Shown here: piece by piece, positions 3,577 to 36,134 of the stretch
How the letters are laid out: the number at the start of each line of letters is the position of its first letter
Position numbering within the stretch: position 1 is the stretch's first letter
NCBI GenBank assembly: GCA_965369865.1
Contig: CBDURU010000003.1
Span: forward strand, 36,560-100,559
DNA: 64,000 bases
Origin: an uncultured bacterium
Lineage (GTDB): Bacteria; JAJVIF01; JAPKYR01
Direction: 5' to 3'
The notes under the pieces: model-generated
Told to the model about the DNA's origin: nothing
Database searches by the model: none
What the model saw: the letters and a program-made list of their open reading frames with translations, nothing else
Made by a program: the position numbers and the translations under genes

Positions 3577-5415
3577 ATGAAACGCCTCAGGGAACAATTT
3601 AAAATTTTCCGCAGCCGGCCCGACTTGCCCTTCTTTCAGAAGGTCTGGAAATTAATAGCCGGCACGCTCGATGCACACCATCTTCACCTGTCCGAAAGCG
3701 CTGTAACCAACATTTTGGCGATCGTTGTCGGGATCATGTCGGGTTATGGTGCTGTTATTTTCCGCTGGATGTTGATAACAGTCACGGATTTCTGGGGAAG
3801 CTCAGGGAATCCGATGTTAGAAAGCTGGTTCCCGTGGCTTGGGAAATTCGCGTTTGTGCCGGTACCGATAATCGGCATGGTTCTAGTCGCACTGCTGGTC
3901 CGGTACGTGGCGCCGGAAGTCGGTGGCAGCGGGATTCCGGAAGTGATGGAATCGGTCGCGATGAAATCAGGGAGGATCAGGGGTCGGGTGGGAGTCGTAA
4001 AAGCAATCGCCAGTTCAATATGTATCGGGTTCGGAGGATCGGCGGGACGCGAGGGACCGATTGTCCAGATCGGAGCGACACTTGGGTCGGTGTTTGCCGG
4101 TGTTTTGAAAATGTCCAGCGAACGGCGTCGATGGCTGGTGGCGTGCGGCGCGGGCGCCGGGATCGCGGCAACATTCAATACGCCGATCGCCGGAGTAATT
4201 TTCGCGATGGAGGTTATCCTACACGGTTCGACACTACGGAGTTTCGCATCGGTTGTTCTCGCTACTGTTTCGGGATCGGTAATCGGACGAATGTATTTCG
4301 GTGACGGGTCCACGTTTGATTTCCTACCCTACGCTTTCGAAAGCAATGTCGAAGTTATCTGGTACGTGATTCTTGGGGTCGCGGCCGGAGCGGTCGGCAT
4401 TCTTTACACAAAATCAATTTACTGGGTAGCGGGGATCATGGATTATTTTAAAAAAGTCCCATTTGTCGTAAAAGCCGCGATAGCAGGGCTTCTGATTGGA
4501 ATCGTGGCGTCAATCTATCCCGAAGTCAGGGGTGTCGGCTATGAAGCGATTTCCGAGGCGGTTAATACGAATCTTGTTTTGCAGACAATGCTGGTCCTGA
4601 TGGTCGTGAAAATTATCGCCACGGCATTGACTATCGGTTCCGGTGGATCGGGTGGAGTTTTTGCACCTGCGTTGTTTATCGGAGCCATGGTCGGCGGGGT
4701 TTGCGGTAACGTGTTTGAGGCAATCGCACCGGAACACACCGCGGGAAGTCCCCCATATGTTATGGTCGGAATGGCGGCGGTATTTTCCGCGGTCACCCAT
4801 GCCCCATTAACGGCAATTTTCGCACTGTTCGAGATGACGGGGGATTACAATATGATCCTGCCGCTGATGGCCTCGGTTGTGATTGCGACGATGCTTTCAA
4901 ACCATTTTGTACATGAGTCCGTGTTCACGATGAAACTGGTCAGGAGAGGTGTCAGGCTGCGATGGGGAGCTAATGTCGATTTACTGGAGAGCCTGAAAGT
5001 CAGGGATGTAATGAAAATTGATGTACATACGGTCCTTGAAAATACCACGAAAAGCGAGTTGTATGAATTATTCACTGAGTTACACCACAACGGATTTCCG
5101 GTCCTGGATATAAAAGGACGTCTTGTCGGTGTGGTAACTTTGACCGATTTTTACAACGCAGCCCATTATCCGGAATTCACCCCTGTGGATAAATTCTGCT
5201 CTCATAAACCACTGACCGTGTCGCCTGAAGACGATCTCAGCGGGGCTTTGAAAAAGATGAGTATTAGGGATATCGGCAGGCTTCCGGTTGTCTCCGACCA
5301 GGACCCGACTCATATGGTCGGGATAATTACCAGGTCGGATGTTCTGCAGGCGTATGAAATGGCCCTCCGACGCCAGCAGTCGGACGATGCTGAGATGAGC
5401 ATGACCGATGAGTAA
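3577..5415 (+). CDS. ClC-family voltage-gated chloride channel / H+-Cl- antiporter with a C-terminal CBS-domain pair
   Basis: 612 aa. ClC selectivity motifs GSGIPE, GREGP and GSGGSGGVFAP are present, followed by two CBS-like repeats (VRDVMKIDVHTV…, …GRLPVVSDQDPTHMVGIITRSDVL). Confidence 0.9.
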   Translation: MKRLREQFKIFRSRPDLPFFQKVWKLIAGTLDAHHLHLSESAVTNILAIVVGIMSGYGAVIFRWMLITVTDFWGSSGNPMLESWFPWLGKFAFVPVPIIGMVLVALLVRYVAPEVGGSGIPEVMESVAMKSGRIRGRVGVVKAIASSICIGFGGSAGREGPIVQIGATLGSVFAGVLKMSSERRRWLVACGAGAGIAATFNTPIAGVIFAMEVILHGSTLRSFASVVLATVSGSVIGRMYFGDGSTFDFLPYAFESNVEVIWYVILGVAAGAVGILYTKSIYWVAGIMDYFKKVPFVVKAAIAGLLIGIVASIYPEVRGVGYEAISEAVNTNLVLQTMLVLMVVKIIATALTIGSGGSGGVFAPALFIGAMVGGVCGNVFEAIAPEHTAGSPPYVMVGMAAVFSAVTHAPLTAIFALFEMTGDYNMILPLMASVVIATMLSNHFVHESVFTMKLVRRGVRLRWGANVDLLESLKVRDVMKIDVHTVLENTTKSELYELFTELHHNGFPVLDIKGRLVGVVTLTDFYNAAHYPEFTPVDKFCSHKPLTVSPEDDLSGALKKMSIRDIGRLPVVSDQDPTHMVGIITRSDVLQAYEMALRRQQSDDAEMSMTDE

Positions 5416-5498
5416 AGAATTTCATTAATTGGTATAATTTCAACGAACGCTGAAACTGGTATTATTAGTGGAAAAAGTGGACAATCTTTAACCAGACC

Positions 5499-7946
5499 AT
5501 GCCTGACGAATTCCCGTCCAATAAGAAAAAAAAATTTCAAGTCGACTGGTGGCTCGTAGCGGTGCTGCTGGTGCCAGTTATCTATTTTCTCCCTGAAATT
5601 CTCGGGCTGAATGTGTTCGCCGGGATCGATTCGTCCAGGCTTAACATGCCGTTCAGGTTATTCGACCGCGAGGCGTTCGCGGCGGGACACCTTCCACTCT
5701 GGAACCCCTATATGTACGCGGGTTTCCCACATCTCGCGGAAAGCGAATCGGGCTTATTTTATCCTGGAAATATTTTCATCCATCTCCCCGGAGATTTTTT
5801 TCACTGGTATTCAATAGAGGTCGTGGCGCATTTTATGATAGCCGCATCGGGATTTTATACATGGATGCGATTTCGACGCCATGAGAAACTGACATCCGCG
5901 TTTCTCGCGATAACGTACTCGACAACACCGTTCCTGATTTTTCATATAACAACCCTGGGACTTTTCACATCGATAGTGTGGCTGCCATGGTTCTTCCTGA
6001 TTTTCGATAAAGGCATAATCAGCAGACAACCACTTAGATTCGGATTGTGGCTATCATTAATATTTGGAATCATGCTCATGAGCGGATCGATCCATGCCGC
6101 TTTCCTCAGTATAACCGGGCTGGTTTTATACGGCCTTGGGAAAATTATCGCGTCCGGCGGCCGCCGCCCAAGGTTAAATTTATTCTGGAGAATTATACCG
6201 GTGCTTGTCCCGATCATTCTCGCCCCGGTAATTGCAGCGATCCAGATACTGCCGACCCTTGAGCTTACCCAGTTCTCCGAACGGTCGGCATCCGACCTGA
6301 TTGAATTTTATGACATGGGCACGTGGTTAAATATTCCAAGGCTCAGATCACTCGTAACTTTTCCAGCTCTCGATAATCCGGCGGATATCCAGCACTACGG
6401 AAGCAGCCTATGTTACCTGGGCGCCCTTCCGTTCATTTTCGCATTATCATCACTTGCATTCTGGAAGGAGAAACGCTGGGAACTGCTTCCATTAGTACTG
6501 ACTGGAATTGTGACGCTGCTTCTCGCATTCGGGCGTAATCTTCCCGGTTATGATTTACTGGTTCAAATTCCACCATTCTCGATGTTCCGGTATCCGGGAC
6601 GGATGGCCCATGTAGCCTTGACGGTATTTCTCATCCTTGCCGCGCCCGGACTGGATTATCTTTTAGGAAAAATTAATAATAATGAAACCAGGGGCAATCG
6701 AAACTGGTGGCCACTGATGGTGGTTGGGACCGGGATCATTATTCTCACAGGAATTTATGGGGTGGTAAAAGGCGGGATCGTTCAGGCCGGCAGCGCTCCC
6801 GTATTATTTTTTGGAATCCTGCTCGCCATGTTTTCAGTAGCTTTACGCCCAGTAAACAATGAACTAAAAAATAAAAAGCTGGCGGGAATAATTCTCGGTT
6901 CATTACTGATATTAAGTATCGTCGCCCAGGTTGTGCTTACCTACCCATTCAGCAGGCTACTCGTACAGAACCGGCCAAAATTCGACGAGTCACTTCAATT
7001 TTTCGATGACATCAAGGCCGAATTTCCATCCGATGATGAAATCCCACGGGTCCTTCTCGCGGGAAGCCATTACCTGATGGACCCGAATGCCATGGATCAT
7101 CTTGGATTCAAGGCTCTGGATAATGTCTGGGATAACATGTCGGGAAACGCGTCCGGACTCAGAAACGTGACCGCGCTCCGCGGTCTCACGCCGCTCAACC
7201 AGAATGACTGGAAGGTTATCCTCCGCGACACCCTTCAAGCCAAAATGGATACAGTGCTGGCACAAGCCCGGGAATTTGGCGAGGCGAAAATCCCCGATGC
7301 GATCTCAATGAAAATTATCCGTATGCTGGGCACGGATATCCTCCTTCTTGAAGGTGATGACTGGGAGGTCCCGGGATATGAATTGTGGCGAACCGATCTT
7401 GGGCTTCCTTATCATGACGGCTTGTGCGCGTACCGTGCCGAGGGCGGGATGATCGTGGATGCTTATTTTGTGGATATCGCTTATTTCAATTTTTATGACG
7501 GCTATGCAGGTTACCTCAGATGGCTGTCAGATGAATACATCGATATCGGAAAAAATGCAGGGATTGAAATGAGTGCGAACGGGGGTAATGAAACAATTTT
7601 CTACAGGAGTGGAATGTCAAATGTCATCGATCGCGATCGGGGTTACAACCGGATGACGTTCGATGTGTCTGTCGGCGGGGAAGGCGGCTTTTTAGTGACC
7701 GGTGAAAATTTCTATCCCGGCTGGAAAGCGTACATCGATGGTGACGAACTTGAGATCCACAAAACTAATTACCTTCTCATGGGGATCGAAGTTCCGGCAG
7801 GCGAGCATAAAATCGAATTTCGATACCAGCCGCGATCGGTGCCGGTCGGAATGATAGGGTCACTGTCGGGATTAATAATATGGGCAATTCTGATGGGTTT
7901 AACGATTCTGATATCCCGAAAAAGAACCGGTATGAGAAGGGTTTAA
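5499..7946 (+). CDS. YfhO-like polytopic membrane protein (GT-C-type glycosyltransferase-like), paralog 1
   Basis: 815 aa. More than 10 predicted TM helices in the N-terminal ~450 aa. Conserved N-terminal block LNVFAGIDSSRLNMPF…LWNPYMYAGFPHLAESESGLFYPGNIF. C-terminal soluble domain ends …GENFYPGWKAYIDGDELEIHKTNYLLMGIEVPAGEHKIEFRYQP plus one TM. The YfhO assignment is from memory of that family's C-terminal motif. Confidence 0.5.
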   Translation: MPDEFPSNKKKKFQVDWWLVAVLLVPVIYFLPEILGLNVFAGIDSSRLNMPFRLFDREAFAAGHLPLWNPYMYAGFPHLAESESGLFYPGNIFIHLPGDFFHWYSIEVVAHFMIAASGFYTWMRFRRHEKLTSAFLAITYSTTPFLIFHITTLGLFTSIVWLPWFFLIFDKGIISRQPLRFGLWLSLIFGIMLMSGSIHAAFLSITGLVLYGLGKIIASGGRRPRLNLFWRIIPVLVPIILAPVIAAIQILPTLELTQFSERSASDLIEFYDMGTWLNIPRLRSLVTFPALDNPADIQHYGSSLCYLGALPFIFALSSLAFWKEKRWELLPLVLTGIVTLLLAFGRNLPGYDLLVQIPPFSMFRYPGRMAHVALTVFLILAAPGLDYLLGKINNNETRGNRNWWPLMVVGTGIIILTGIYGVVKGGIVQAGSAPVLFFGILLAMFSVALRPVNNELKNKKLAGIILGSLLILSIVAQVVLTYPFSRLLVQNRPKFDESLQFFDDIKAEFPSDDEIPRVLLAGSHYLMDPNAMDHLGFKALDNVWDNMSGNASGLRNVTALRGLTPLNQNDWKVILRDTLQAKMDTVLAQAREFGEAKIPDAISMKIIRMLGTDILLLEGDDWEVPGYELWRTDLGLPYHDGLCAYRAEGGMIVDAYFVDIAYFNFYDGYAGYLRWLSDEYIDIGKNAGIEMSANGGNETIFYRSGMSNVIDRDRGYNRMTFDVSVGGEGGFLVTGENFYPGWKAYIDGDELEIHKTNYLLMGIEVPAGEHKIEFRYQPRSVPVGMIGSLSGLIIWAILMGLTILISRKRTGMRRV

Positions 7947-7950
7947 AGGC

Positions 7951-10440
7951 ATGAAAAAAGCGGACACGAAATCGGAATTTATACCGCTGCTCGGGCCGAT
8001 TCTTCTCCCGCTCATTTTTTTCTGGCGTGAACTTACCGGTCTGAACGTGTTCGCCGGATTTGATTTCACTCACCTGATACTACCCTTTCACCATTACGCG
8101 AGAGACGCATACAGCCACGGATTCCTGCCGGAATGGAATCCGTTCATGTTTGGTGGATTCCCACAGATCGCGGAAGGCGAGGGCGGGTTTTTTTATCCGG
8201 GAAACTGGATGATGCTCGCGTCGGGGGACCAGTCGGTGCTTCTTTCATGGAATGTCGTGCTGCACCTGATACTCACCGGGTGCCTGATGTACATGTACCT
8301 TCGAAACCGCGGCGCGACCCGTGCGACATCGGGCTGGCTTTCAATAATATACCAGTTTCTGCCGGGACTGATTTTAAGAATGGAAACGGTCGGGCTTTTC
8401 CAGGCGGTCTGCTGGCTTCCAGGATTTTTCTGGATGCTGGAACGCAGTGTGAATTCAGCAATCACGGGGAAGGACCTGAAATCGGCCTTGAAATCCGGCT
8501 GGCACAGGTGGATGTTATACGCTTCCGTGATTGTAGCGTTCATGCTTCTCGCCGGATCGAGCCAGATAGCGTTTTACGCGATGGTCGGAGGGTTTCTATA
8601 CCTGTGCGGATTTTCTTTATCCGGACCCCATCCCGGGCGGCGTGCGGGCTGGGCCGGAGCGATATTTGTGTCGATTACAATTTTCTCCGTGGTCCTGTCG
8701 GCGGTGCAATTGATCCCGACCGCGTTATTTTCCGAACTTTCGTGGCGAGTGAATGAAGCCGGGTACAGCTATTACAGGATCGGGACCTGGATCACACTGC
8801 CGCGTCTCTCAAGCCTTTTCATGTTCCCGGCCGTTAACGATACGAGTGAAATTCTCTATTATGTCACATCGCTTGGGTACATTGGACTGCTGCCGCTTTT
8901 GCTTGTTGGTGTCGCGATAAACCGGTACAAAAGATTCATGAATCCCCTGCTCCCTCCATTTTTCCTCTTGTTTTTCGGACTAATGCTCTCGTTCGGACTG
9001 AATTTTTTCATCAACGAAGACCTGATCGTATTTCCGGGATTCAATTTGTTCCGGGCGATGGGACGTATGATTCTCCCGACCGTCATCGCGTTATTCGCGA
9101 TCGCCGCGATGGGGCTTGATTCGTTGTTTCAACTTACCCGGAATGTAAAGAACGGGAAGGTTTGCCTGCATGGGATTTATGGAACGGTAATAATTTCGGT
9201 AATTCTTCTTGTATGGCTCATATTTTTTGAAAATGGAAATCATCCGGGTCTTTTTATTCCCGGTCTGGCAGGACTTGTAGTTCTTTCGGTCCTGGTTGCC
9301 GCGTTCCTTGCCGGATTCTTCCGAAAGCCTAATAAAAACTGGCTCATAGGGCTTCTGGCAGCCTGGTTCACGATCCATTTCGTAATGCTGATCCCATTGA
9401 AATCCGCAATCACCATGAACCGAAGCGCTTTCGTTCGAATGCTTGGTGAAATTACTCAAAACGATGGCATTTATCGAAATCAGGATTTTGAATATGCGTG
9501 GCCGCGGGTTCTGATTTCATATGAGGAGAATGTCTGGGAACCTTTACTCGAAAGAATTTCCACAAAGCCATTTTCGACAGGCGATCGACTTCCAATCCCG
9601 GCGACAGGAAATGAAATCACGATGGGGAAAATCGGGGTGCTGAACGCATATACCCCGCTCGTCACCGACCGATGGCACGAGGTTGCGAGGGAATATGCCG
9701 CCAGGGGTTTAGACGATATCGAAATCGCCAGCGATCGTCTTGTAAAAGTTCTCGCACTCATGCGTGCCAGCGCGATTATCGCTCCTGGAACATTTCATGG
9801 CGGTGACGGTTTCAGCGAAGTATCGACCCGGATTCTCGATATGTTCCCTGAAGGCTGGCATGTACTCTCGACTCCGGAACCTGTGCCGTATGTCAGCATC
9901 CCCGGTTATATCGAGGGCTGGGATGAAAATCACTGGGAGTGGTTCAAGTACTGGATCACGCAGGAAGATTATGAAACCGGCGACTGGGTATGTGTTGAAG
10001 TTGACGAGACCTTTGAATTTCCGGAGGGTTTCCAATGGGGGGATGTGCTTACACCCGTTGAGGAATTCCAGCCGGCAATTCCCGCGATCGGCGGTAATGA
10101 ACTCGATCCGGAACTGTCGCATGAACTAACAGCAATTACGCGGGATATCCGTGGCGCGCCGATTTTATATATCACTGTAAATACCGATGAACCGTGCTGG
10201 GTCATTGTCCGCGAAAGCAACATGCCCGGATGGACCGCGACCGTGGATCGGGAAACGGTTCAGATCGCGACGGCGGATTACCTTTTCATGGGGATTCCGG
10301 TACCCGAGGGTCAGCATGAGATCAGGCTTGAATACAAAACACCGGGGCTGGCGACAGGAGGGTGGATTTCGGGTATCGGGTGGCTGATTTTTTTGATAAC
10401 TATGGTTTTCCCGGTAGTATTTCGCGCGAAAAAATCATAG
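7951..10440 (+). CDS. YfhO-like polytopic membrane protein, paralog 2 (4 bp downstream of paralog 1)
   Basis: 829 aa. Homologous N-terminal block [16 protein letters not shown]…[28 protein letters not shown]-terminal …[40 protein letters not shown] plus a TM anchor. Confidence 0.5.
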
Positions 10441-10501
10441 GATACATCCTTTGCAGGCGTTCTTGAAAATACACGAGATTCCCGAGGAGATTTCTCGCTA
10501 T

Positions 10502-12526
10502 ATGACCAAAAAACCAGATGGAATAGATGGACTTTGCATCAACACTCTCAGAACTCTCTCAATCGACATGATCCAGAAGGCGAATTCGGGCCACCCCGGG
10601 CTCCCGCTCGGCGCCTCGCCATTCGCATATGTCCTGTGGACGAAATTTCTGAAGCAGAATCCCGGCAATCCCGACTGGCCGGATCGCGACCGTTTCGTTA
10701 TGTCGGCAGGCCACGGAAGCGCGCTTCTGTATTCGCTTCTCCACATGGTGGGTTATGACCTTACTCTCGATGACCTCAGAAATTTCAGGCAATGGAACAG
10801 CAGGACGCCCGGCCATCCGGAATCCTTTATGACCGAGGGTGTTGAGGCCACAACCGGGCCTCTCGGACAGGGGACGGCAAACGCGGTCGGAATGGCGATC
10901 GCGGAGAGAGTACTCGCGAACCGCTTCAACCGTCCCGATCATAAAATTATCGATCATTTCACGTACACGCTTGTCGGTGATGGAGACCTGATGGAAGGGA
11001 TCTCCGCCGAGGCTTCATCGCTTGCCGGACACCTGAAGCTCGGAAAATTGATTTTCCTGTACGATTCGAATGATATTTCTCTCGACGGTCCGACCTCGCT
11101 TTCGTTCACCGGTGAGGATGTTCTCAGGCGGTATGAAGCGTATGGATGGCAGGCAATTCGTGTCGAAGACGCTAATAACGATCTGAAAGGTATTGAGGTC
11201 GCCCTGAACCTGGCGAAATCCGACCTCTCGAAACCTTCGATAATTGAATTTAAAACGACGATCGGATATGGATCGCCGAATAAATCCGGCTCGGAAGCGG
11301 CGCACGGCGCTCCACTTGGTGAGGATGAAGCCATCCTGACTAAAAAGGCGATTGGATGGGAATGGCCGGACGAGACATTTTATGTCCCCGACAAGGCACG
11401 CGAGCATTTTCAAAATTCCACTACCAGGTGGATGGATGCCAATAATGAGTGGCAGAAGGTTTTCGATTCTTACACTGAAAAATTCCCGGAGCTAGGGAAC
11501 GAATTTAACCAGGCGATAAACGGTGATCTTCCCGATGGCTGGGATTCTGATTTACCGACTTACTCGACCGGTGAAAAAATCGCTACCCGTATCGCGGGAA
11601 GTGAAACGTTAAACGCGATCGGCGCGAAAGTGCCGTACATTTTTGGTGCGGACGCGGATTTGTCCTGTTCCACCAAAGGAAAGATCAACGATGGAGGTTC
11701 GTTCGATGGTGATACCGGCGAGGGTCGGAATCTCAGGTGCGGTGTTCGCGAACACGCGATGGCGGCGATCGCGAACGGAATCTGCTGGCACAAGGGACTC
11801 AGGCCGTTCACATCGACATTTTTCGTTTTTTCGGACTACATGAAACCGTCGATCAGGCTGGCCGCGATGAACAACCTGCCTGTTATATACATCTGGACGC
11901 ACGATTCAATCGGGGTCGGCGAGGACGGGCCTACTCATCAACCCGTTGAACACCTTGGGGCGTTGAGGGTAATCCCCAACCTGTCAGTCGTGCGTCCGGC
12001 TGATGCCAATGAAACTGTCGAGGCCTGGAAATGGGCAATTCAACAGAGCAACAATCCTGTCGCTCTTATTTTAACGAGACAGGGGGTTCCTGTATTTGAC
12101 CGCGAGAAATATGAGTGCGCATCGAACCTGAAATTCGGCGCGTACGTGATTTCCGATTGCGGCGATGATGAACCCGACGCGATTATCATCGCGACAGGCT
12201 CGGAGGTTGAACTCGCTCTTGAAGCACAGGAAATCCTGTCGGGAGACGGTATCCGGGTCAGAGTTGTATCTATGCCGTGCATGGAGGAGTTCAGTTTACA
12301 GGACGAAGGTTATATAAAATCAGTGCTCCCGCCCCAGATTAAAAACCGCATTTCGATTGAAGCGGGATCGACATACGGATGGAAAAAGTGGGTGGGCGAC
12401 CAGGGGATATGTATCGGGATCGACAAGTTCGGCGCGTCCGCACCGGGGAAAGTCGTGTTCGGGAAGTATGGAATTACCGCGGAGAGACTGGTCAGCGAGG
12501 TCAAGCGGATGGTCCTTCAACGATAA
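10502..12526 (+). CDS. tkt: Transketolase
   Basis: Hallmark TPP-binding N-terminus (…[20 protein letters not shown]…[20 protein letters not shown]…) and full-length homology. The ORF opens at a TTG at 10451. The ATG at 10502 with GAGGAG upstream is the more likely start. Confidence 0.9.
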
Positions 12527-12550
12527 CAGCGATTTTCGATTATACCTGGC

Positions 12551-13009
12551 GTGCATAAAGGAGGCTGTACAATGACCGGGAAACCGGAGTGCACATATTT
12601 CGCTTATGGATCGAACATGGACCCGTCCCAGATGGAATTCCGATGTCCCGGCGCAAGCCCCATCGGTATCGGAATCCTCAAAAATTTCCGGTTCCTTATA
12701 AATTCCCGTGGTGTGGCAACGATCGCCCGTGATGAAGGAAAATCGGTTTACGGCGTGCTGTGGTCTATCGGCGAGGAACATGAACGCACACTGGATAAAT
12801 GCGAAGGGGTTAAATCGAATATCTATTACAGAGATTTCGTATCAGTCGAAACATCTTCAGGTGGAACAGAAGAGGCCCTGGTTTATATTGATCCCGTAAC
12901 CGATCCGGGGCCGCCTAAAGATGGTTATCTCGAAAAAATCCTCACGGGCGCACGCCATTTCAATCTGCCTGAAAAATATATTGAGGACTTATCATTATGG
13001 GCGGGTTGA
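12551..13009 (+). CDS. Gamma-glutamylcyclotransferase-like (AIG2/GGCT fold) protein
   Basis: 152 aa. N-terminal YFAYGSNMDPSQM motif typical of the GGCT/AIG2 family. The true start may be the internal Met (MTGKPE…). Confidence 0.65.
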   Translation: MHKGGCTMTGKPECTYFAYGSNMDPSQMEFRCPGASPIGIGILKNFRFLINSRGVATIARDEGKSVYGVLWSIGEEHERTLDKCEGVKSNIYYRDFVSVETSSGGTEEALVYIDPVTDPGPPKDGYLEKILTGARHFNLPEKYIEDLSLWAG

Positions 13010-13256
13010 AAATTTTTTAATGGCTGGCTGGGAGATCACCAACAAGCTTGTATGGCTGGAAGCCAAACGTCGCATGTTGGCGGCACCCAGGCTAAATCCA
13101 TCAAAATCGGATTTAATTTTATTTAATAAGGGTTAATAAATATGGGCTGGAATGCCAACCCCGTCCCGCGGTTGGAATTTTGACCGGTGCCGACCGCGTC
13201 CTGGAGTTGTTGATAAAGTGAAAAATCATCTTGGACAGCAGTGAAGTACTATAATT

Positions 13257-15680
13257 CTATTCCTGTTTTGACGATTGATCGTTTATTTTTATATTGATAC
13301 TTCGATGAGTGATGAAAATCCCGATTACTACCCAGGCAAAAATACTGATCATCGCCACTGACATGCCCTCTTTCAAGCCTGGCATGAGGTAGCGAAATTC
13401 TACCGTATGCTCGCCGCTCCCGATCTCAACAGCCATCGCAAAATTCCCGTGCACTTTCATTTCACGCGCTTCTCCATCGACCTCAACCGTCCATCCGGGC
13501 GCATATCCTTCATTGAGAACGAGAAGACCGGGAAAATCATAGCGGGTCTCAGCCGCAAAAAATCCCGGTTCATCCAGTCTTATTTCAGGCTGGGATAATA
13601 AATTAGGATCGTTGCTCCCGCTCTCAACATATGCTTCATCAGATGGAATGATAGATAGCCTTGTCGGCGGTTGTGCTGTATAACCCGGTTGGTCATACAA
13701 GTCATAAACAAAAAAATTATCGCTCTCACTTTTTGGAATAAGACCCTCGATGCTGGAATCAGACAGGACATATCTGATACCCATGTCAAATAGCCTTCTG
13801 TCGTAAAGATCAACCGGGGGAGTGAAAAAAGCGATTCCACGCCGCTTGATGACTGACTCCTCCTGGATATCCCTGAGCAGATCAAACCGGGATTTCGGGA
13901 CAAGGTTGTGGTATCCAAAAGCGTCGGGTATCCCGAAGAACGTCCCAAGGTTCGGGTAAAAGTTGTATGGCTGGTCTTCCAGCGATGCAGGATTTGCCGA
14001 ATTGTTCGCGTAGCGGATGATCCGTCCCCATTGGCCACCAGCCTCCGGACTGATCATTCTTTGCAGGCTTTGGATCGTCTCGGTTGCAGGTATTGGATTT
14101 CTTGAATAAGGGGATTTGAAATCTGACAGGACGAATGTTCCTGACATGATTGCCGAGTATATGAAACAGGCCGATAGAAGGGTGATTCCGAAGTAAATGT
14201 ATTTTTTTGAGATGGTATAGAACGCCGAGAAGATTATCACCGCTCCCGCAATTGTAAGGACATACGGATCGCCAGTTGGGATTAGCAAGCTACGGTCTGT
14301 AAGAAGAATGCCCGCGAGCGCAATTACAATTCCAATTAAAGCGGGAATGAGCGCGACAGAGTGCGTCACGCCAACCGGTTTATCGAGCGCGGCGATTTTT
14401 TTCCAGTGTTTCACTCCGATCGCAGAGAATATCAGAATAATGAATCCCAATATCTCCAGGGGCTGTGTCGGTAGGATAAAGATCGCTCTCGTTGGGATGC
14501 TTAGAAGGTTATTCAATGTCGGGTTAAGAGCAAAAGGTGTGATTATCAGCGCGATAATTGCAAGTGATCTCGGAAAATCAAGTTGTCGCCAGTTAACTAA
14601 TCCCAAAAGCGCAAAGGTAAAAGGGATAACCCCGACATATCCGCTGTAATGGGGGTAATAAAATCCAAGCCTGAGTGGGAGAATTGGCTGCAGAAGACGC
14701 TGGAAATGATTCTGCCATGGTTCGGTGAATTGAAGAGCGGTCGTGTATTCCGTCATCATTTGCTGAAACGATTGGAAAGCGATACGGTCGCTTAGTGCTG
14801 AAGCCATAAGGGTCGGGATGTTCTGCACCATGGAAATCCCGAGACCTAGAATGAACGGCCATACCAGAATTTTTAGTGATGCTTTCCATGATGGTCTAAT
14901 AACGCGATCGATCATCCTTCCTCGAATGAAAAACCATACTGCGGTGAAAAGCCCAAAATGCACCAAAAGCGTTGGATAGCCTGCAAGTAGAGGAACTGAC
15001 CAGCATAGAGCCATCCATAATCCTGCCCACGGGTTTTGATGTTTCAGCCATCTTTCATGGAAGAACCATATTCCCGGGAAAAAGGCCATCGTCATCGGCC
15101 AGGGCTGGTAGTACGGGGTGGGAAGAAGGGAGACCACGAGAAAACTAGCTGCTGCCCATGATGCTATACGGCATGCGAGCCATTCCTTCAGAAAAAGATA
15201 AAAGAAAATCGCCATGATCAGGGTGTGAAGAACGCCCGATGCACCGAGAATCATAAGAGGCGGGAATAACCACGCTATAAGGGCATAAACAGGGTAGTAC
15301 ACCGGAACGAGATGATTTTGAAGTAAAGGGACTCCGCTAAGACAGTACGGGTCCCAGGCAGGGATATTTCCTTTACGAAGCTCGTCGTGCGCGATTTTAT
15401 TCCACGGGCTATACATCAAAACCGCGTCGAAATTCGTATGAAGGATATTGGGATCATCATGCCCAGAGAAGCCAAGTTCGCTATTCCAGGGTTCCAGTCG
15501 CTCCCATGAGTCGGGCATAACGGGTTTACCCAGCAGGAGCGGATAGTAAAGAGCGAGTCCCAGAAGAATCAAGCCTAGGATTGGAGCCAGATCAGCCAGA
15601 GCAAACGCCCTTTGGATTCCGGTTGTCTCTTTAAAACCAGTATTGTCTTTCTGATCGGACATCCGGGATGATTTTATCAC
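13257..15680 (-). CDS. YfhO-like polytopic membrane protein, paralog 3
   Basis: 807 aa. Many TM helices. C-terminus …NEGYAPGWTVEVDGEAREMKVHGNFAMAVEIGSGEHTVEFRYLMP plus a TM, matching the other two paralogs. GTG at 15680 or ATG at 15662. Confidence 0.5.
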   Translation of the reverse strand: MIKSSRMSDQKDNTGFKETTGIQRAFALADLAPILGLILLGLALYYPLLLGKPVMPDSWERLEPWNSELGFSGHDDPNILHTNFDAVLMYSPWNKIAHDELRKGNIPAWDPYCLSGVPLLQNHLVPVYYPVYALIAWLFPPLMILGASGVLHTLIMAIFFYLFLKEWLACRIASWAAASFLVVSLLPTPYYQPWPMTMAFFPGIWFFHERWLKHQNPWAGLWMALCWSVPLLAGYPTLLVHFGLFTAVWFFIRGRMIDRVIRPSWKASLKILVWPFILGLGISMVQNIPTLMASALSDRIAFQSFQQMMTEYTTALQFTEPWQNHFQRLLQPILPLRLGFYYPHYSGYVGVIPFTFALLGLVNWRQLDFPRSLAIIALIITPFALNPTLNNLLSIPTRAIFILPTQPLEILGFIILIFSAIGVKHWKKIAALDKPVGVTHSVALIPALIGIVIALAGILLTDRSLLIPTGDPYVLTIAGAVIIFSAFYTISKKYIYFGITLLSACFIYSAIMSGTFVLSDFKSPYSRNPIPATETIQSLQRMISPEAGGQWGRIIRYANNSANPASLEDQPYNFYPNLGTFFGIPDAFGYHNLVPKSRFDLLRDIQEESVIKRRGIAFFTPPVDLYDRRLFDMGIRYVLSDSSIEGLIPKSESDNFFVYDLYDQPGYTAQPPTRLSIIPSDEAYVESGSNDPNLLSQPEIRLDEPGFFAAETRYDFPGLLVLNEGYAPGWTVEVDGEAREMKVHGNFAMAVEIGSGEHTVEFRYLMPGLKEGMSVAMISIFAWVVIGIFITHRSINIKINDQSSKQE

Positions 15681-15848
15681 TTATGGGTATCAGTTACACC
15701 CAAGTGCCGCCCGCAGTTCGCCGCAGGCGAGATGTGGATGTCCGGAATATTTCCTATTTTTCCGAATCACCCAAATCCTGCGCTACGCTCGTATCAAGGC
15801 GCCACAGGTCTATTTAATTCTCAAATCTACGCTTGTTTAAGCTACCTG

Positions 15849-16922
15849 TTATTCCAGTTCTTCCTGCTGTTTGTTTTTCTTTTCCCTCGACTTTTTTACC
15901 CGCGTTTCCGCACTCTCATACGCTTCCACGATCAGTTGGACGAGCGAATGGCGGACGATATCAGTCTCATCGAGATTTACCAGCGCGATCCCACCGATGT
16001 GCGACAGGATATTCAACGCGTGCGCGAGTCCGGAGGTCTCCCGTGTGCCGAGATCGACCTGGCTTGGGTCGCCGGTAATCACCATCCTGGATCGGGGGCC
16101 CATCCTGGTCAGGAACATTTTCATCTGGCCCGCGGTGGTGTTCTGCGCCTCATCGAGAATAATGTAGCTTTTATTTAATGTCCTTCCACGCATATACGCG
16201 AGCGGTGCGATCTCGATGACCTCCCTCTCAATCAGGCGACGGGTTTTTTCAACGCCAAGCATTTCGTAAAGGGCGTCGTAAAGCGGACGGAAGTACGGGT
16301 CGACCTTGTCGAGGAAAGTTCCCGGCAGATATCCAAGGCTCTCACCGGCTTCGACCGCGGGTCGGGTCAGGATAATTCGCTGGACCGTTCCCCTGCTCAG
16401 AGTATTAACCGCCATAGCGACCGCGAGGTATGTTTTTCCGGTACCGGCTGGTCCCGCGCAGAAAGTGATGGCGTTATCCTTCATCGACTGGACATAATTG
16501 GCCTGTCCTTCTGTCCGGGGACGGATTTTGAGCAATCCACCGTTGATAACAAGTCCATCGAACGCATGATCGTTTTTTTTCGCAGGCGCCTGTTCTTCCA
16601 GGCCATCATCGAGAGGAATCTCCGTCTCAACTTCCCTGCTTCGCTCCTGGTGGTAGAATCGCTCGATATCATCCTCCGACAATTCATCGCCGGCCTGTGC
16701 CCTTTTTACGAGCAGACCGAGGAGTTGCTGAACGAGGGCGACCTCATTAGAAGGCCCGGTGATCCTGACCGACGATCCGCGCGGGACAACCCGTGCAGGG
16801 GTATTCTGCTGGATCACCCTGAGATTACGGTCCGCAACACCGAGAACCTGTACCGCTTCGAGATCGTTCCTGAAATGGAAAGTCAGAGTTGTAACTTCAT
16901 CGTCCTTAAGACGTTTTGCCAA
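15849..16922 (-). CDS. phoH: PhoH-like ATPase (PhoH/YbeZ family)
   Basis: 357 aa. Walker A GPAGTGKTYLAVAMAV. Conserved PhoH core (…ILTRPAVEAGESLGYLPGTFLDKVDPYFRPLYDAL…ILDEAQNTT…ITGDPSQVDL). TTG start with a GGAGGA RBS. Confidence 0.9.
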   Translation of the reverse strand: MAKRLKDDEVTTLTFHFRNDLEAVQVLGVADRNLRVIQQNTPARVVPRGSSVRITGPSNEVALVQQLLGLLVKRAQAGDELSEDDIERFYHQERSREVETEIPLDDGLEEQAPAKKNDHAFDGLVINGGLLKIRPRTEGQANYVQSMKDNAITFCAGPAGTGKTYLAVAMAVNTLSRGTVQRIILTRPAVEAGESLGYLPGTFLDKVDPYFRPLYDALYEMLGVEKTRRLIEREVIEIAPLAYMRGRTLNKSYIILDEAQNTTAGQMKMFLTRMGPRSRMVITGDPSQVDLGTRETSGLAHALNILSHIGGIALVNLDETDIVRHSLVQLIVEAYESAETRVKKSREKKNKQQEELE

Positions 16923-17032
16923 AATAAATCATCCTCCATAAATGAAAGCACCGTTCATCTATATTAGAATATTATCATATTTCCTGTATCAGCACGATTA
17001 CGTCTATTATTTTGAATACCAGGCATAATCCA

Positions 17033-20000
17033 TCAGTACAAATCGAAAACCTTGAGACCTCTTCCCCCGGTGCCAAGGTACAGGTAGCCGTCAAGTGTTA
17101 CCAGATCACTTGGCGCCCATGTCATACCATCATACAGGTAGCCAAGTTTGGCGGGACAATCGGGCGGCCAGATTGAACAAATTTCCGGAATTCGATAGAA
17201 GCCATACGCATACGCATAGTATCCATCGACATAAATTTCGCTCAGCCAGTTTACACCCGGAAGGGGCAGGGCGGCAACGTGCACGGGGACATCCGGATTG
17301 GTCAGGTCCGTAATTTGAAGCTCGCCACTAGTCATGATATACATTTTGGATCCATAAGAGGTCAGGTCATAATGAATGTCCAGCGAGTTAGAATATGAAC
17401 CAACATATGCAGGCGGCATCGGAGCGTCAGCGGTATAAATTTCTATGCTATTCTGCAAGGCATAATACATATTGGGGGAATAATACATGATGTCTCTGAC
17501 GGCCGAAGGAAAGGTGATCGAAGTTACATATACGGGTGCGGATGGAATAGCGACGGAATAAATTCTGACCGTTTTGGCCGGATCATTAATTGCGACATAA
17601 GCATGATCTCCCTGTAAAAGTATCTGATTGATATCATGTGTTTCAACGGTGTATGCCAGATCAGTGATTGCGAGCGGGTCAGTCGCGTCGTTCAGGCTCC
17701 AGTGCTTGCCGCCGGCGGTCATGAGTAAGTTCTGGTCCAGAGACATATCCCTCAGGACATCATTCACCCAGAATTCAGCGGCGACATATACATTGGCGGG
17801 GTTGGAAATATCAATGGTTTTAACAGCCTTATTGTAATCGACAACCAAGAGGTATCCATCTTTAATGACAAGTGATATGCAGTAATTAACGACTTTCTGC
17901 CGTGACAGTGAAGGAGATCCTGGCGGGTTGATGCTGAAAATTTCAAGACCCTGGCTGTTGGGAATGATGTAAGCATAGTCCCCAACCGCGGCTACATCCT
18001 TACCATCGGTCACCATCGGGACAGTGCTGTCGTATTGTGGATTATCCGGATCGGTCGCATCGCAGACCGAAAAGCCGGCGGGTCCATCTCCGATTGTCAC
18101 ATACGGCCAGGAAATATCAATACTCCTGGCGGTTCCCGGTACGTTAACGCTTCCTTTAGGAGTCAGGATATTCGTATTGAGGATGTGTGTATAGCCCTGA
18201 TGGACAATCGTGTCATAAACGGCGGTATAGATATACCCATCGTTGACAACAGTTTCCTGGATCACATTATTCGCAGGATAAGTGTGTGTCGCAAGTAATT
18301 GGGGGTTTAATGGATCTTCGATAAGGTATGAATAAAGTTCATTGTAGATCGTCATTAAGAGGGATGTTGCGGGTCCTTCAGGATCCATGAGATCCAGATC
18401 ATCACAACTGTAAGGTGCGACGAAGTTATGAAGTTCGATCGGATTCGTGGGATCTGAAGAGATGTCATAGAACAACAAGTAATAATCCCCCATAGGATTG
18501 TCGAACCACGATAAATACAGGTGGGTTGAATTCGAGCACATACTGTATAACAGGGACCAGGAATCAAAGGTGATAATATCAGGATAAGAAACCGGTGCTT
18601 CAGGAGTTGTCAGATCCAGCAAGGAAAGATCATTGTTGTCGCTGTAGTAAAGATACGGATAATTAAACGTGGCATAATCATTTATGGTGTAATCAAAAGC
18701 CTGCAGGAACAAGGGATTCGAAGGATTCGAGATATCGTAAATCCAAAGCCTGTCTCCCCCCATGATCGCGTAATTGTCATGAATCCAGATGAAGGTCGGC
18801 TCAAGAAATAATCCGTCCGGAGTGATATCTACCGGGTTATCCGGGGACGCGAAAGGCCCGGTCAGTTTCAATACATAAGGTGCGATCTGGGAAGGGTTAC
18901 TAGTGTAAACACGAATGAAATACTGCCCCGTTTCCATGCCTGGATCAGACAATGGGATGGTTGCAGAACCTCCAACGACATCATCTTCGCTTACAAGCGT
19001 ATGCGTGCTGTCATATAATCCCACCTTAGTCAGGGATACATCGCAGAATAGTTCAATTTTCGCATCGTAAGCATAACCGCCAGTGATCTGAAACTCGTAA
19101 AAATCCTTGTAATCATTCGGGAGACATACCTGGTCATATATTTCAGAATCGAAACTGACAGGAAAAGCTTCCATGAAGTCATTGTTAGCGTCGGGGTCAC
19201 AGGTAACCTCCGGGATATCGAGAATGAGTGTCTGCCAAGCAGCGACAGAAGTATCCGGGGCCGGATAGGTAAACCCCTGGTTGTAATCAGGTCCGCCCGC
19301 TGATTTTACTTTCACGGCAACAAGGACCTCCCCTGCCGAGGCGGGTAAAGCGGTGCCGGTGAGATCGGCAGTGTAAGATGCTTTCAGAGCGGTTTGTGAA
19401 TCGAAAATCGCACTAACTCCACCGGGGAACAAATCGGGCGAAAAAATCCTCACGCTCTCAACCTGTGCAGCGATGTCGCCCAGAGCCTGTCCCTGCCAGT
19501 CATGGACATTTAATTTCAATTGAAGGACGCCACCACCGACCCCATTATCAACATCATAGTAAAGGGTGTTGACCTTATCGACTAATACAAGATTGAAAGC
19601 TTCGGGTTGATTGGCTTCAATGGGAAAATCATCCGGAACCTCAAGCGGAGGATTAGGTGCCGGTAAGGCCCAGCAGGCATCGATTACATACGAGAATCGA
19701 AAATCGGGTGCAGGAAGCATCGGGAAGCGAACATTGTAGCGTCTTGTGTTAGCGGTCCCGGTGGTGAAAACACCCCTGCCCATATCGTTGTTCAGTGGTT
19801 CTAAAAAAACAGGCTGCAGACCTTCCAAATTATCAAGGATATCTGCGAAATACCGGTACGGGTTAACCGACGCGGTCAGTTCGGCACCGGGAGTATTTGC
19901 AAACTGGTTTTCGATGTACCCGAAAACACCGGATTGAGTAAATTCTGCAGGATTCCACCAGCGCGTGAACCCGTCGGCATTTTCAAGTTGGGTTTCATCG

Positions 20001-20440
20001 ACATCGGAGAAAAATAATGAACCGATCGGGAGAGTTCCCGGAGCCATTACGATGCCTTTAACATCAAAAATTGTGAACTCCGTTTCGGTGTCGAACGGGT
20101 GGGTGAGAGTAAAATCGACAACAAAAAGACCGTTTGGCGGGTCCGATTGCCCCGGCGGCAGAACGACAGACAGGCTGAAAGTGTCGATGAAGATTTTCGT
20201 CAGGTTGAAGTGGAAATCTGTAGACCTGTCCGGGATTGTATTAACCTGATTGGTCCCGGCCTTGATAACTATGTCGTACGAGCCCAGCATTTGATGGTTA
20301 TTCACATTACTGCTGGAATTTGTTAATCCTGAATCCTGGCCGGTGCTCACTGAGGGTGTTACCGGATTTTTCGAGCATCCCGGAGATGCAAACACGCCAG
20401 CCAGTAAAAAAATAATTAGAGTCAGGGCGATTCTGTTCAT
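17033..20440 (-). CDS. Giant surface lipoprotein, array copy 4 (most downstream on the minus strand). Architecture: conserved N-terminal module, PPC domain, LVIVD-like beta-propeller.
   Basis: 1135 aa. Signal peptide with Cys22 (…LAGVFASPGCS). The N-terminal ~380 aa is shared with the three upstream genes and with 47591..49537. PPC-like segment CDPDANNDF…DYKDFYEF…GQYFIRVYT…YVLKL. The C-terminal half has repeats such as GDYAYIIPNSQGLEIFSINP and DGYLYLGTGGRGLKVFDLY. GGAG RBS. Confidence 0.7.
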   Translation of the reverse strand: MNRIALTLIIFLLAGVFASPGCSKNPVTPSVSTGQDSGLTNSSSNVNNHQMLGSYDIVIKAGTNQVNTIPDRSTDFHFNLTKIFIDTFSLSVVLPPGQSDPPNGLFVVDFTLTHPFDTETEFTIFDVKGIVMAPGTLPIGSLFFSDVDETQLENADGFTRWWNPAEFTQSGVFGYIENQFANTPGAELTASVNPYRYFADILDNLEGLQPVFLEPLNNDMGRGVFTTGTANTRRYNVRFPMLPAPDFRFSYVIDACWALPAPNPPLEVPDDFPIEANQPEAFNLVLVDKVNTLYYDVDNGVGGGVLQLKLNVHDWQGQALGDIAAQVESVRIFSPDLFPGGVSAIFDSQTALKASYTADLTGTALPASAGEVLVAVKVKSAGGPDYNQGFTYPAPDTSVAAWQTLILDIPEVTCDPDANNDFMEAFPVSFDSEIYDQVCLPNDYKDFYEFQITGGYAYDAKIELFCDVSLTKVGLYDSTHTLVSEDDVVGGSATIPLSDPGMETGQYFIRVYTSNPSQIAPYVLKLTGPFASPDNPVDITPDGLFLEPTFIWIHDNYAIMGGDRLWIYDISNPSNPLFLQAFDYTINDYATFNYPYLYYSDNNDLSLLDLTTPEAPVSYPDIITFDSWSLLYSMCSNSTHLYLSWFDNPMGDYYLLFYDISSDPTNPIELHNFVAPYSCDDLDLMDPEGPATSLLMTIYNELYSYLIEDPLNPQLLATHTYPANNVIQETVVNDGYIYTAVYDTIVHQGYTHILNTNILTPKGSVNVPGTARSIDISWPYVTIGDGPAGFSVCDATDPDNPQYDSTVPMVTDGKDVAAVGDYAYIIPNSQGLEIFSINPPGSPSLSRQKVVNYCISLVIKDGYLLVVDYNKAVKTIDISNPANVYVAAEFWVNDVLRDMSLDQNLLMTAGGKHWSLNDATDPLAITDLAYTVETHDINQILLQGDHAYVAINDPAKTVRIYSVAIPSAPVYVTSITFPSAVRDIMYYSPNMYYALQNSIEIYTADAPMPPAYVGSYSNSLDIHYDLTSYGSKMYIMTSGELQITDLTNPDVPVHVAALPLPGVNWLSEIYVDGYYAYAYGFYRIPEICSIWPPDCPAKLGYLYDGMTWAPSDLVTLDGYLYLGTGGRGLKVFDLY
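18851..19207 (-). other. PPC (bacterial pre-peptidase C-terminal)-like domain inside array copy 4. Approximate boundaries, residues ~412-530.
   Basis: DANNDF…DxxDFYxF…(G)xYxxRVxxxxxxxxxYxL pattern characteristic of PPC domains. An equivalent segment occurs in the other three array members (e.g. CHGDANNDFADAF…DYRDFYFF…). Confidence 0.5.
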
Positions 20441-20501
20441 AACTACACTCCGCTAGTGAATTATTTTTATTCTGCCAATATAAATGGACTAATTGTTTAA
20501 C

Positions 20502-23945: not shown

Positions 23946-23996
23946 GATTCACCTCGGTACTCCGGTAATTTATTTGTGCTAATGATATTTATCCGA

Positions 23997-27431: not shown

Positions 27432-27461
27432 GTATTCCTCCTTCAAATTTCAAATTATTAA

Positions 27462-30908: not shown

Positions 30909-31293
30909 TTTATGCCTCCTAATCCGGAACATCTCAGTTCGGATAGACATTAGTTGGATCTAACAATTTTTCCCGAGGATTAAAACCGTAAAGCTTGATA
31001 AAATCAGGGGGTCCTGGCTCGTCATATCGCAATAGCCCGTTGATATGATCCTCCATGAAACCATATTTCATTGTATTGAAAGAAAGTTTCAATACATTAT
31101 GAAGCTTTAAGTCACCAGTAGTCAATTGAAATATTGATATATGGAAAATTCCTGTCGTGTCCCGTTCAGGGATTAGAAATGGCCTTGCGGGGTATTCGCC
31201 TTCGCTGTGTTGTAATTTATACTTGCATTTTAAGACCGTTATGTATTATTATGCATAACGACTTGTACGGATTGTGACCCGATTAATTAAGGA

Positions 31294-32166: not shown

Positions 32167-32199
32167 ATGTAATTAAATAAACAGGAGTGAGAATAATAG

Positions 32200-32895
32200 T
32201 TGGATGAATTAACAGTACAAAGTGTCGAAACGGTCGGTTACCTGTCGATGTTTAACGGGGACATCGTCGCACTTATCGGGACATCGTTCAACCTGTCCCT
32301 GTGGTCGACATCGATCGCCGCACTGATCGGCTTCCCGCTTGGGGTCTTAATCGGACTGTCCGAATTCAAAGGAAGAAGAACTGTTGATATCATTCTGAAT
32401 ACTCTTCTTTTCCTGCCGACTGTTGTGGTCGGGCACCTGGTTTACATGGCACTTACCAGGGAAGGATTTTTAGGGGATTTCCAACTACTTTTCACCCGTC
32501 CCGCAATTATTATAGGGCAGGTAATCCTTGCCACCCCAATAATCCTGACCATGGTTTCCAATACAGTACGGCTGGCGGACCGGCGGATCATTCCGACAGC
32601 ATTATCGATGGGGGCCAGTCGAATCAGGGCATATCTGCTTCTACTTGGTGAGGTGCGGGCTCTGGTGGTTCTCTCGCTGCTTGCGGCTTTCGCACGTGTT
32701 ATCTCGGAAGTCGGCGTTTCGATGATGCTGGGCGGGAATATTTTTGGAAAAACCCGGACGATTACCACGGGAATTGCCCTGCTTACCAGCCAGGGTGAAT
32801 TTTCCCAGGCAACGGTCCTCGGGCTTGTACTTCTGGTGATAGTTTTCGGAATCAATATTGTGGTTTACCAGGCTACACACAGGGTGTCTGCATGA
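32200..32895 (+). CDS. tupB: ABC transporter permease (TupB-like)
   Basis: 231 aa. About 5 TM segments and a binding-protein-dependent permease signature region. Overlaps the next gene by 4 nt. Confidence 0.7.
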   Translation: MDELTVQSVETVGYLSMFNGDIVALIGTSFNLSLWSTSIAALIGFPLGVLIGLSEFKGRRTVDIILNTLLFLPTVVVGHLVYMALTREGFLGDFQLLFTRPAIIIGQVILATPIILTMVSNTVRLADRRIIPTALSMGASRIRAYLLLLGEVRALVVLSLLAAFARVISEVGVSMMLGGNIFGKTRTITTGIALLTSQGEFSQATVLGLVLLVIVFGINIVVYQATHRVSA

Positions 32896-36133: not shown

Positions 36134-36134
36134 A

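Follow-up and report, generated by a model that had tools for sequence, protein, structure and literature searches.

Three probable YfhO-family GT-C membrane glycosyltransferases, including a conserved tandem pair, in an uncultured diderm bacterium

In a stretch of 64,000 nucleotides from an uncultured bacterium (the window) three genes, here called A, B and C, were found whose products are quite probably YfhO-family (PF09586) membrane glycosyltransferases of the GT-C fold. The host is a diderm whose relatives are MAGs labelled Planctomycetota. Sequence comparison with these relatives indicates that A and B, about 28% identical, form a tandem pair that is ancient and conserved, and that C is an independent member of the family which lies next to an array of four lipoprotein genes only in this genome. 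The features concerned are as follows.

3577..5415, forward strand: ClC chloride channel/CBS gene (Pfam), the upstream neighbour of A-B
5499..7946, forward strand: paralog A, probable YfhO-family GT-C glycosyltransferase, 815 aa (PF09586, 51.6 bits)
5601..5795, forward strand: predicted first extracytoplasmic loop of A, residues 35-99, with Asp44 and the LPLWNPY..G.P motif
6957..7835, forward strand: predicted periplasmic C-terminal domain of A, residues 487-779, delimited by DSSP of the AF2 model
7836..7922, forward strand: predicted C-terminal TM helix of A, residues 780-808, followed by the basic cytoplasmic tail RKRTGMRRV
7951..10440, forward strand: paralog B, YfhO-family, 829 aa (PF09586, 40.6 bits)
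10451-12526: tkt, between B and C
12551-13009: GGACT/AIG2 gene, between B and C
13257..15680, reverse strand: paralog C, YfhO-family, 807 aa as an ORF (PF09586, 42.2 bits)
15849-16922: PhoH gene, between C and the lipoprotein array

In each of the three proteins a multi-TM N-terminal block precedes a hydrophilic region of about 290 aa, and the chain closes with a single C-terminal TM helix. A and B align over their full length with about 28-30% identity (BLASTP E 1e-73 to 2e-79), and A and C share 22-24% identity (BLASTP E 2e-13). The start of B lies 4 nt past the stop of A. The start of C is probably the ATG at 15662 (801 aa), as an identical database gene call (P0121) begins 6 codons downstream of the ORF start, and that of tkt is probably the ATG at 10502. 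A scan of positions 5300-17200 for promoters and terminators gave counts equal to the shuffled expectation and so did not define operons, and Rfam and tRNA scans of the 64-kb window gave no matches.

The family assignment rests on several searches. The PF09586 model scores above its gathering cutoff (28.5 bits) in all three proteins and is also matched by 58/58 aligned relatives. In A the best Pfam stretch comprises residues 739-785, that is, only the last 50 or so residues at the end of the periplasmic domain and TM14. The homology to YfhO proteins goes beyond this terminal motif, taking in the N-terminal TM block as well as the C-terminal domain: in BLASTP A aligned with one annotated YfhO protein (P0051) over residues 59-368 (E 2e-32) and 717-780, and with another (P0119) over residues 44-402 and 696-808. 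In an exhaustive search the matches typically fell into two stretches, the best-scoring being the N-terminal TM block (about residues 20-400). No Pfam match with E <= 0.01 to the other GT-C families (PMT/PMT_2/ArnT-like, STT3, DUF2723 and others) was obtained for A, B or C, and among the 58 relatives these families gave only sporadic single matches. The only NCBIfam matches were to the PgfM1 and PgfM2 equivalogs (NF047589/NF047590), confined to the C-terminal 60 or so residues and scoring 22.4-26.7 bits against cutoffs of 1400 and 1500; A, B and C are therefore not orthologs of PgfM1/PgfM2. Searched by sequence, the PDB gave no match, and no solved YfhO structure is detectable in this way. The family is very large, with tens of thousands of 50%-identity clusters, and the three proteins are ordinary members of it. 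Close homologs already carry the label "YfhO family protein" at NCBI.

The AF2 model of A (pLDDT 91.6, pTM 0.92) supports a GT-C fold, which would extend to B and C. When it was compared with the PDB by Foldseek, the top 15 matches were all GT-C enzymes, with AftD, AftA, STT3, PglB, AglB, EmbB and ALG12 at a probability of 1.00. E-values of the best matches ranged from 3e-8 to 6e-4, AftD being the best, with modest TM-scores of 0.34-0.48 and 10-12% sequence identity to the solved structures. AF2 secondary structure and hydropathy together give a topology for A of 13 TM helices, the domain of residues 487-779 and a final TM helix. The first loop is placed outside because it is net acidic and comes after TM1, which follows a K-rich N-terminal tail. 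This loop is the putative catalytic loop. Its Asp44 (codon at nt 5628-5630) is invariant in orthogroups A (16/16), B (8/8), C (18/18) and D (3/3), and G63, P66, W68, G75 and P89 are conserved in all four; beyond the loop, H111, R262, R517 and W742 are conserved across the four orthogroups together with D44 and W68. The predicted periplasmic domain, flanked by TM13 and TM14, is mixed alpha/beta, contains 47 D/E versus 28 K/R, and has at its end a beta-sandwich that bears the PGW...D...G.H...Y motif.

Much of what a sequence-only reading of this DNA had proposed is borne out by these results. It described three paralogous ORFs, which are present and mutually homologous by BLASTP, with tkt and a GGCT-like gene interleaved, as they are (the latter being the GGACT/AIG2 gene). 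Its YfhO identity, to be weighed against ArnT, PMT and AglB, agrees with a Pfam YfhO score above threshold and no competing GT-C family; the GT-C layout agrees with a model that matches GT-C enzymes only; and the conserved Asp loop is outside the membrane in a self-consistent positive-inside topology. The motifs it ascribed to all three proteins hold in part. The N-terminal LNVFAG...WNP..M..GFP...FYPGN is exact in A and B but degenerate in C (FD...AWDPYCLSGVP...YYP), and the C-terminal NFYPGWKA.IDG is exact in A, whereas B and C keep only the core common to the three, PGW...(V/I)D...G.H...Y.

By analogy with the characterised YfhO, PgtC2 and PgfM1 proteins and with GT-C enzymes in general, we infer the catalysis, the type of donor and the sidedness of the reaction. 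A cytoplasmic GT-A enzyme would load a sugar onto polyprenyl phosphate, the lipid-linked sugar would then be flipped across the membrane, and the YfhO protein would move it to an acceptor on the periplasmic face. Transfer would take place at the first outside loop (Asp44, WNP motif) together with the outside residues H111, Q249/P252/S260/R262 and R517, and the acceptor may be held by the periplasmic domain of about 290 aa between TM13 and the last TM helix. If the host is a diderm, teichoic acid cannot be the acceptor; candidates are an envelope glycan, a glycolipid or Ser/Thr-rich protein segments. Neither a CsbB/GtrB-like GT2 (PF00535) nor a GtrA flippase (PF04138) was matched in the ORFs of the 64-kb window or in the genes called in the flanks of relatives. 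With no such partner gene nearby, the three-component system is not seen as a locus, and the partners may be located elsewhere in the genome.

Orthologs of A (53-94% identity) occur in Planctomycetota-labelled MAGs, and those of B (49-71% identity) always adjoin them. The pair and its orientation are kept in at least 8 independent loci, and B overlaps the stop of A by 8-35 nt in 4/6 relatives with both gene calls. As the two genes usually overlap, translational coupling is probable, and A and B probably act in one pathway. In eight relatives' loci (L002, L003, L005, L010, L011, L013, L015 and L016) a ClC gene with 64-93% identity is the immediate upstream neighbour of A. A functional link to this channel was considered and rejected, the gene order being conserved in one lineage only and having no mechanistic rationale.

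The orthologs of C (40-62% identity) form a separate orthogroup with no conserved neighbourhood; five different contexts were found. C shows only 21-25% identity to A, B or the third YfhO gene of the relatives; for this reason the convergent third gene of L001, L002, L014 and L015 was rejected as a C ortholog, being no closer to it than A or B. In one relative (L099) the C ortholog lies directly after lpxL-kdsB-waaA-lpxK, genes which show that the lineage makes lipid A. An ArnT-like modification of lipid A by C was rejected, as this context is 1 locus among five contexts.

The sequence-only reading had also placed the three genes directly upstream of the four lipoprotein genes and proposed a dedicated apparatus for glycosylation of the envelope or of surface proteins. 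As to the distance, only C is near the array, with the PhoH gene in between; A and B are on the opposite strand, at a distance of over 6.5 kb. As to the linkage, no four-gene lipoprotein array was found beside the YfhO genes in any of the YfhO loci of 16 non-redundant relatives (0/16, 259 kb). Their flanks hold 5 strong copies of this very abundant lipoprotein family, scattered singly, or about 1 per 50 kb. This is no enrichment over the background, which is 1 copy per 24.5 kb where index copies are over 3 kb away. In the opposite direction, an HMM search of 76 metagenome loci with members of this family (851,528 bp, 128 copies) recovered no YfhO ORF, while its positive control recovered 45/45. 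The YfhO genes and the lipoprotein family thus essentially do not co-occur in relatives, an outcome that the sequence-only reading had itself named as refuting its proposal, and the proposed apparatus is unsupported. The conserved N-terminal domain of the lipoproteins matched no Pfam family, gave only 12 matches in a word-indexed homolog search, and its AF2 model, built from 13 sequences, is poor (pLDDT 52.9).

What the proteins act upon can be read in several ways. That the trio O-glycosylates the four adjacent giant lipoproteins, the genes being linked because they work together, seems to us very improbable, and as a claim about the locus it is close to refuted. It would account for C sharing a strand with the array (L4-L3-L2-L1-phoH), for a 503-aa protein of the lipoprotein family encoded 64 nt after the C ortholog, on the same strand, in one relative (L019), and for the short Ser/Thr/Pro-containing linkers that follow the lipobox Cys of these LVIVD lipoproteins. 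Against it stand the relatives, none with an array beside A-B or C and with lipoprotein-family genes at or below background density near the YfhO loci; the 852 kb of lipoprotein loci without a YfhO ORF despite a working control; the position of A+B, on the other strand and with tkt, GGACT, C and phoH between them and the array; and the linker of L2, which is not Ser/Thr-rich. A guilt-by-association link between the YfhO genes and the array, tempting though it is, lacks support and falls away. A genetically unlinked version, in which the enzymes would act in trans as a general O-glycosylation system on disordered, Ser/Thr-rich stretches in many proteins, periplasmic or membrane-anchored, possibly including the lipoprotein linkers, is a possibility of rather low probability. 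It has a precedent in the same Pfam family (PgtC2 of streptococci), an abundant lipoprotein family with N-terminal linkers to act on, and the sole, though very weak, NCBIfam matches to PgfM1 and PgfM2; these scores, however, fall short of the cutoffs by a factor of about 50, a glycan is an equally plausible ligand of the periplasmic domain, as the best structural match AftD is a polysaccharide arabinofuranosyltransferase, and one C ortholog directly follows lipid A/Kdo genes.

An obligate GT-C heteromer of A and B glycosylating a periplasmic acceptor, possibly the Ser/Thr/Pro linkers of the massively expanded lipoprotein family, appears a long shot. A and B usually overlap and both are predicted to be catalytically intact. 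A parallel is PMT1-PMT2, a eukaryotic heteromer. With these linkers as its acceptor, the heteromer would be a general system of lipoprotein O-glycosylation outside Firmicutes. We regard it as extremely improbable that no sugar is transferred, whether because the proteins have another function (polymerase, flippase or scaffold) or because they are catalytically dead paralogs sharing a GT-C-like fold. The transferase activity of YfhO has been deduced genetically, a flippase role was raised by the authors of that work, and the family does not conserve the classical DXD motifs (PMC5836110); yet the outside-facing polar residues D44, H111, R262 and R517 are kept in all four orthogroups, which argues for an active site retained in each paralog, and the significant structural neighbours are all active GT-C transferases. 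We favour YfhO-family glycosyltransferases, of which A and B would serve one pathway.

The closest known systems include those of Firmicutes. YfhO of B. subtilis, S. aureus and L. monocytogenes is the GT-C component of the three-component CsbB-GtcA-YfhO system that glycosylates teichoic acids with GlcNAc. The B. subtilis protein has 13 TM helices and a large outside loop between the last two, csbB-yfhO is an operon, and the source paper gives no direct biochemical proof of transferase activity (PMC5836110). The proteins described here share with these YfhO proteins the Pfam family, the roughly 13 TM helices, the large extracytoplasmic domain before the last TM helix, the C-terminal PGW...G.H...Y motif, the GT-C fold and a conserved loop predicted outside. 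Unlike those bacteria, the host here belongs to a diderm lineage that has lipid A genes and in which teichoic acids are not known, and the acceptor should therefore differ; no csbB-like GT2 gene adjoins A, B or C, as csbB adjoins yfhO in B. subtilis; strong resemblance to the Pfam model is limited to the C-terminus; and there is a conserved tandem pair plus a third copy. GtcA is encoded elsewhere in the genome in Firmicutes.

In streptococci, surface and membrane proteins are O-glycosylated in Ser/Thr-rich regions by PgfM1/PgfM2 and PgtC2, GT-C enzymes with a YfhO domain. These enzymes belong to the same family, and their extracytoplasmic catalysis from undecaprenyl-phosphate sugars would, by analogy, be a further likeness to A, B and C; moreover, two YfhO-type paralogs are encoded together in both cases (here A and B). 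The pgf cluster differs in also encoding the GT-A enzyme PgfS, the epimerase PgfE and the substrate adhesins, a linkage that is not present here. The arabinofuranosyltransferases AftD and AftA of mycobacteria and the oligosaccharyltransferases STT3, PglB and AglB resemble our proteins in having a multi-TM core followed by a periplasmic domain, but the identity to them is 10-12%, there are no Pfam matches to their families, and A has an extra C-terminal TM helix after the soluble domain.

The YfhO family has been functionally characterised only in Firmicutes, whereas the copies described here belong to a lineage that makes lipid A, and their conserved overlapping A-B pair leads to the concrete hypothesis of a GT-C system that works with two enzymes or as a heteromer.

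Three genes encoding membrane proteins of the YfhO family (PF09586), designated A, B and C, lie on one side of phoH, and four large paralogous lipoprotein ORFs (L1-L4) lie on the other. Upstream of A are genes for a LysM-NlpC/P60 hydrolase and a ClC/CBS channel. The tkt and GGACT/AIG2-like genes were identified by domain search.

5499-7946, plus strand: YfhO-family gene A, ORF of 815 aa
7951-10440, plus strand: YfhO-family gene B, ORF of 829 aa
10451-12526: transketolase gene (tkt), between B and C
12551-13009: GGACT/AIG2-like gene, between B and C
13257-15680, minus strand: YfhO-family gene C, ORF of 807 aa
15849-16922, minus strand: phoH
17033-30950, minus strand: four paralogous lipoprotein ORFs of 1135-1162 aa, with signal peptide, a Cys in a lipobox-like context and an LVIVD repeat

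The mechanical ORF starts of C and tkt are probably too far upstream. An identical database gene call (P0121) places the start of C at ATG 15662 (801 aa), and the likeliest start of tkt is ATG 10502 (MTKKPDG...), the gap between B and tkt then being about 61 nt.

Beyond the lipoprotein genes, a complete-looking cluster for molybdate uptake and molybdenum cofactor synthesis (31294-38918, plus strand) encodes a periplasmic binding protein, an ABC ATPase with a TOBE domain, MoeA, MoaA, MoaC, MOSC, MogA/MoaB-like, MobA and FdhD proteins. An 815-aa polytopic membrane protein (57337-59784, minus strand), in which TM helices at either end flank a spermine/spermidine synthase-like domain (PF01564, E 6e-8) in the middle, is unrelated to A despite its equal length. 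At the window edge, a 270-aa ORF (62927-63739, minus strand) with a pPIWI-associating nuclease domain predicted by Pfam (PF18165, E 4e-11) possibly belongs to a prokaryotic Argonaute/pPIWI defence module running past the window.

A and B share about 28-30% identity over their full length; between A and C the figure is 22-24% (E about 2e-13). All three score above the gathering score of PF09586 (28.5 bits), with 51.6 bits for A, 40.6 for B and 42.2 for C, the best-scoring stretch being only the last ~50 residues. The homology nevertheless extends beyond this C-terminal tail, since residues ~44-400 and ~696-808 align with YfhO-annotated proteins in BLASTP, typical relatives in an exhaustive HMMER search have two matching stretches of which the N-terminal TM block scores best, and PF09586 was matched by all 58 members of an alignment of close and distant matches, among which no other GT-C family recurred in Pfam. 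The family is very large, as the HMMER search returned 39,377 cluster representatives at E <= 1e-3, of which 13,836 remain at E <= 1e-10. The only NCBIfam matches, PgfM1/PgfM2, reach 22-27 bits where the cutoffs are 1400-1500, and A, B and C are hence not orthologs of these proteins. The sequence-only reading was thus right to assign the three proteins to YfhO/GT-C, and their homologs are already annotated "YfhO family protein"; the N- and C-terminal motifs that it described are exact in A, largely kept in B and degenerate in C.

In relatives, orthogroups A (53-94% identity) and B (49-71%) separate cleanly, and their members are side by side in every relative with enough sequence (loci L001, L002, L003, L005, L008, L010, L013, L014 and L015), several of these MAGs being labelled Planctomycetota in NCBI record titles. 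The stop of A is overlapped by B by 8-35 nt in L001, L002, L003 and L005; the two genes are 4 nt apart in the window and 175 nt apart in L010, and in L008 they are separated by a 323-aa gene. The ClC/CBS gene is directly 5' of A in most loci. This ancient arrangement, conserved and in most cases with overlapping genes, makes it probable that A and B serve one pathway, as successive steps or as a complex. In four relatives a third, convergent YfhO gene (group D) abuts B:

L001, 14926-17523, minus strand
L002, 14927-17317, minus strand
L014, 13566-16094, minus strand
L015, 5926-8346, minus strand

No group D gene was seen in the window, and we rejected the possibility that group D is orthologous to C, to which it is no closer (21-25% identity) than to A or B.

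The orthologs of C form a set of their own (40-62% identity) and differ in gene neighbourhood: L019 and L021 have a 1200-aa Ser/Thr kinase-AAA-TPR gene there, and on a JGI contig two C genes stand in tandem. In L099 the ortholog (48% identity) ends a co-directional run (4238-12367) of lpxL-, kdsB-, waaA- and lpxK-like genes (lipid A acyltransferase, CMP-Kdo synthetase-like, Kdo transferase-like and LpxK), which also includes UDG and an M50 peptidase. This context, seen once only (contig L100 has the same gene order), hints that some C-type enzymes might act on LPS. It also shows that the lineage makes lipid A and is therefore diderm, without an obvious teichoic-acid acceptor.

The four lipoproteins and a fifth ORF (47591-49537, plus strand) belong to a highly expanded family whose shared, conserved N-terminal domain spans ~330 aa. 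No Pfam family was found for this domain, which has the motifs LG.YD, THP, DV(K/R)G, NADGYTRWWNP.EF, LNPYKYFAD and DWQ; its AF2 model is poor (pLDDT 52.9). The C-terminal parts are variable (LVIVD propeller, PKD). A pattern scan gave at least 529 confirmed matches in metagenome contigs, often in tandem arrays.

The proximity of these genes to A, B and C had suggested a dedicated apparatus for lipoprotein glycosylation, a proposal that did not withstand the synteny comparison put forward with it. When the 10-kb flanks of YfhO loci were searched by tblastn and with an HMM of the ~330-aa domain, L003, L008 and L010 each had a single copy and L019 two, of which one follows the C ortholog after 64 nt; none was found in L001, L002, L005, L014, L015 or L099, L021 gave only a marginal match (its 1008-aa LVIVD protein, E 7e-6), and no relative had an array. 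These 5 strong copies in 259 kb amount to about one per 50 kb, whereas the background, taken from 76 loci (128 copies) kept among the matches listed in the pattern scan, is one per 24.5 kb (7 copies over 171.6 kb of sequence lying beyond 3 kb of the index copy). At such a density in these genomes, any gene can be expected to have a family member nearby. Conversely, the 76 lipoprotein loci (851,528 bp) contained no ORF matching the YfhO HMM at E <= 1e-5, while the same HMM recovered 45/45 YfhO ORFs of the forward set. Chance is thus the best explanation for the adjacency, given how crowded the genome is with members of this lipoprotein family. A, B and C may still glycosylate the lipoprotein linkers in trans, as streptococcal PgtC2 and PgfM1, of the same family, glycosylate Ser/Thr-rich disordered regions (bioRxiv 10.1101/2024.05.05.592596), but nothing specific speaks for this, and the linker of L2 is not rich in Ser/Thr.

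In B. subtilis, a single transcript covers yfhO and csbB, the latter encoding a GT2 enzyme that makes C55-P-GlcNAc, and the GtrA-type flippase GtcA is encoded elsewhere (PMC5836110, PMC8035078). None of the ORFs scanned across the 64-kb window has a GT2 or GtrA domain, nor does any called gene in the relatives' flanks; the sole sugar-nucleotide gene in the window, an NAD-dependent epimerase/dehydratase (60300-61229), is 44 kb away. Family, fold, topology pattern, conserved residues and synteny are shown by the data; for the chemistry and its sidedness we infer as the most likely mechanism that a polyprenyl-phosphate sugar would be synthesised on the cytoplasmic face, flipped over the membrane and consumed by A, B and C on the periplasmic side, where the Asp44/WNP loop (EL1), together with the conserved residues facing outside, would make up the active site, and acceptor binding would fall to the periplasmic domain.

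Asp44, which directly follows TM1, is putatively catalytic by analogy with GT-C enzymes in general. It is invariant in 4/4 orthogroups, as are G63, P66, W68, G75, P89, H111, Q249, P252, S260, R262, G308, R517, G741 and W742, and hence no paralog resembles a degenerate pseudo-enzyme. Combining the helices of the AlphaFold model with hydropathy and charge, A has 13 TM helices followed by an acidic domain (487-779) and a fourteenth TM helix (780-808). All loops assigned to the cytoplasm are K/R-rich (N-terminal tail NKKKK; RFRRHEK 124-130; GGRRPR 219-225; KEKR 323-326; loops 393-402 and 449-458; C-terminal tail RKRTGMRRV), while loops 35-99 and 246-308, assigned outside, are net acidic. This architecture is the same as that published for B. 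subtilis YfhO (PMC5836110).
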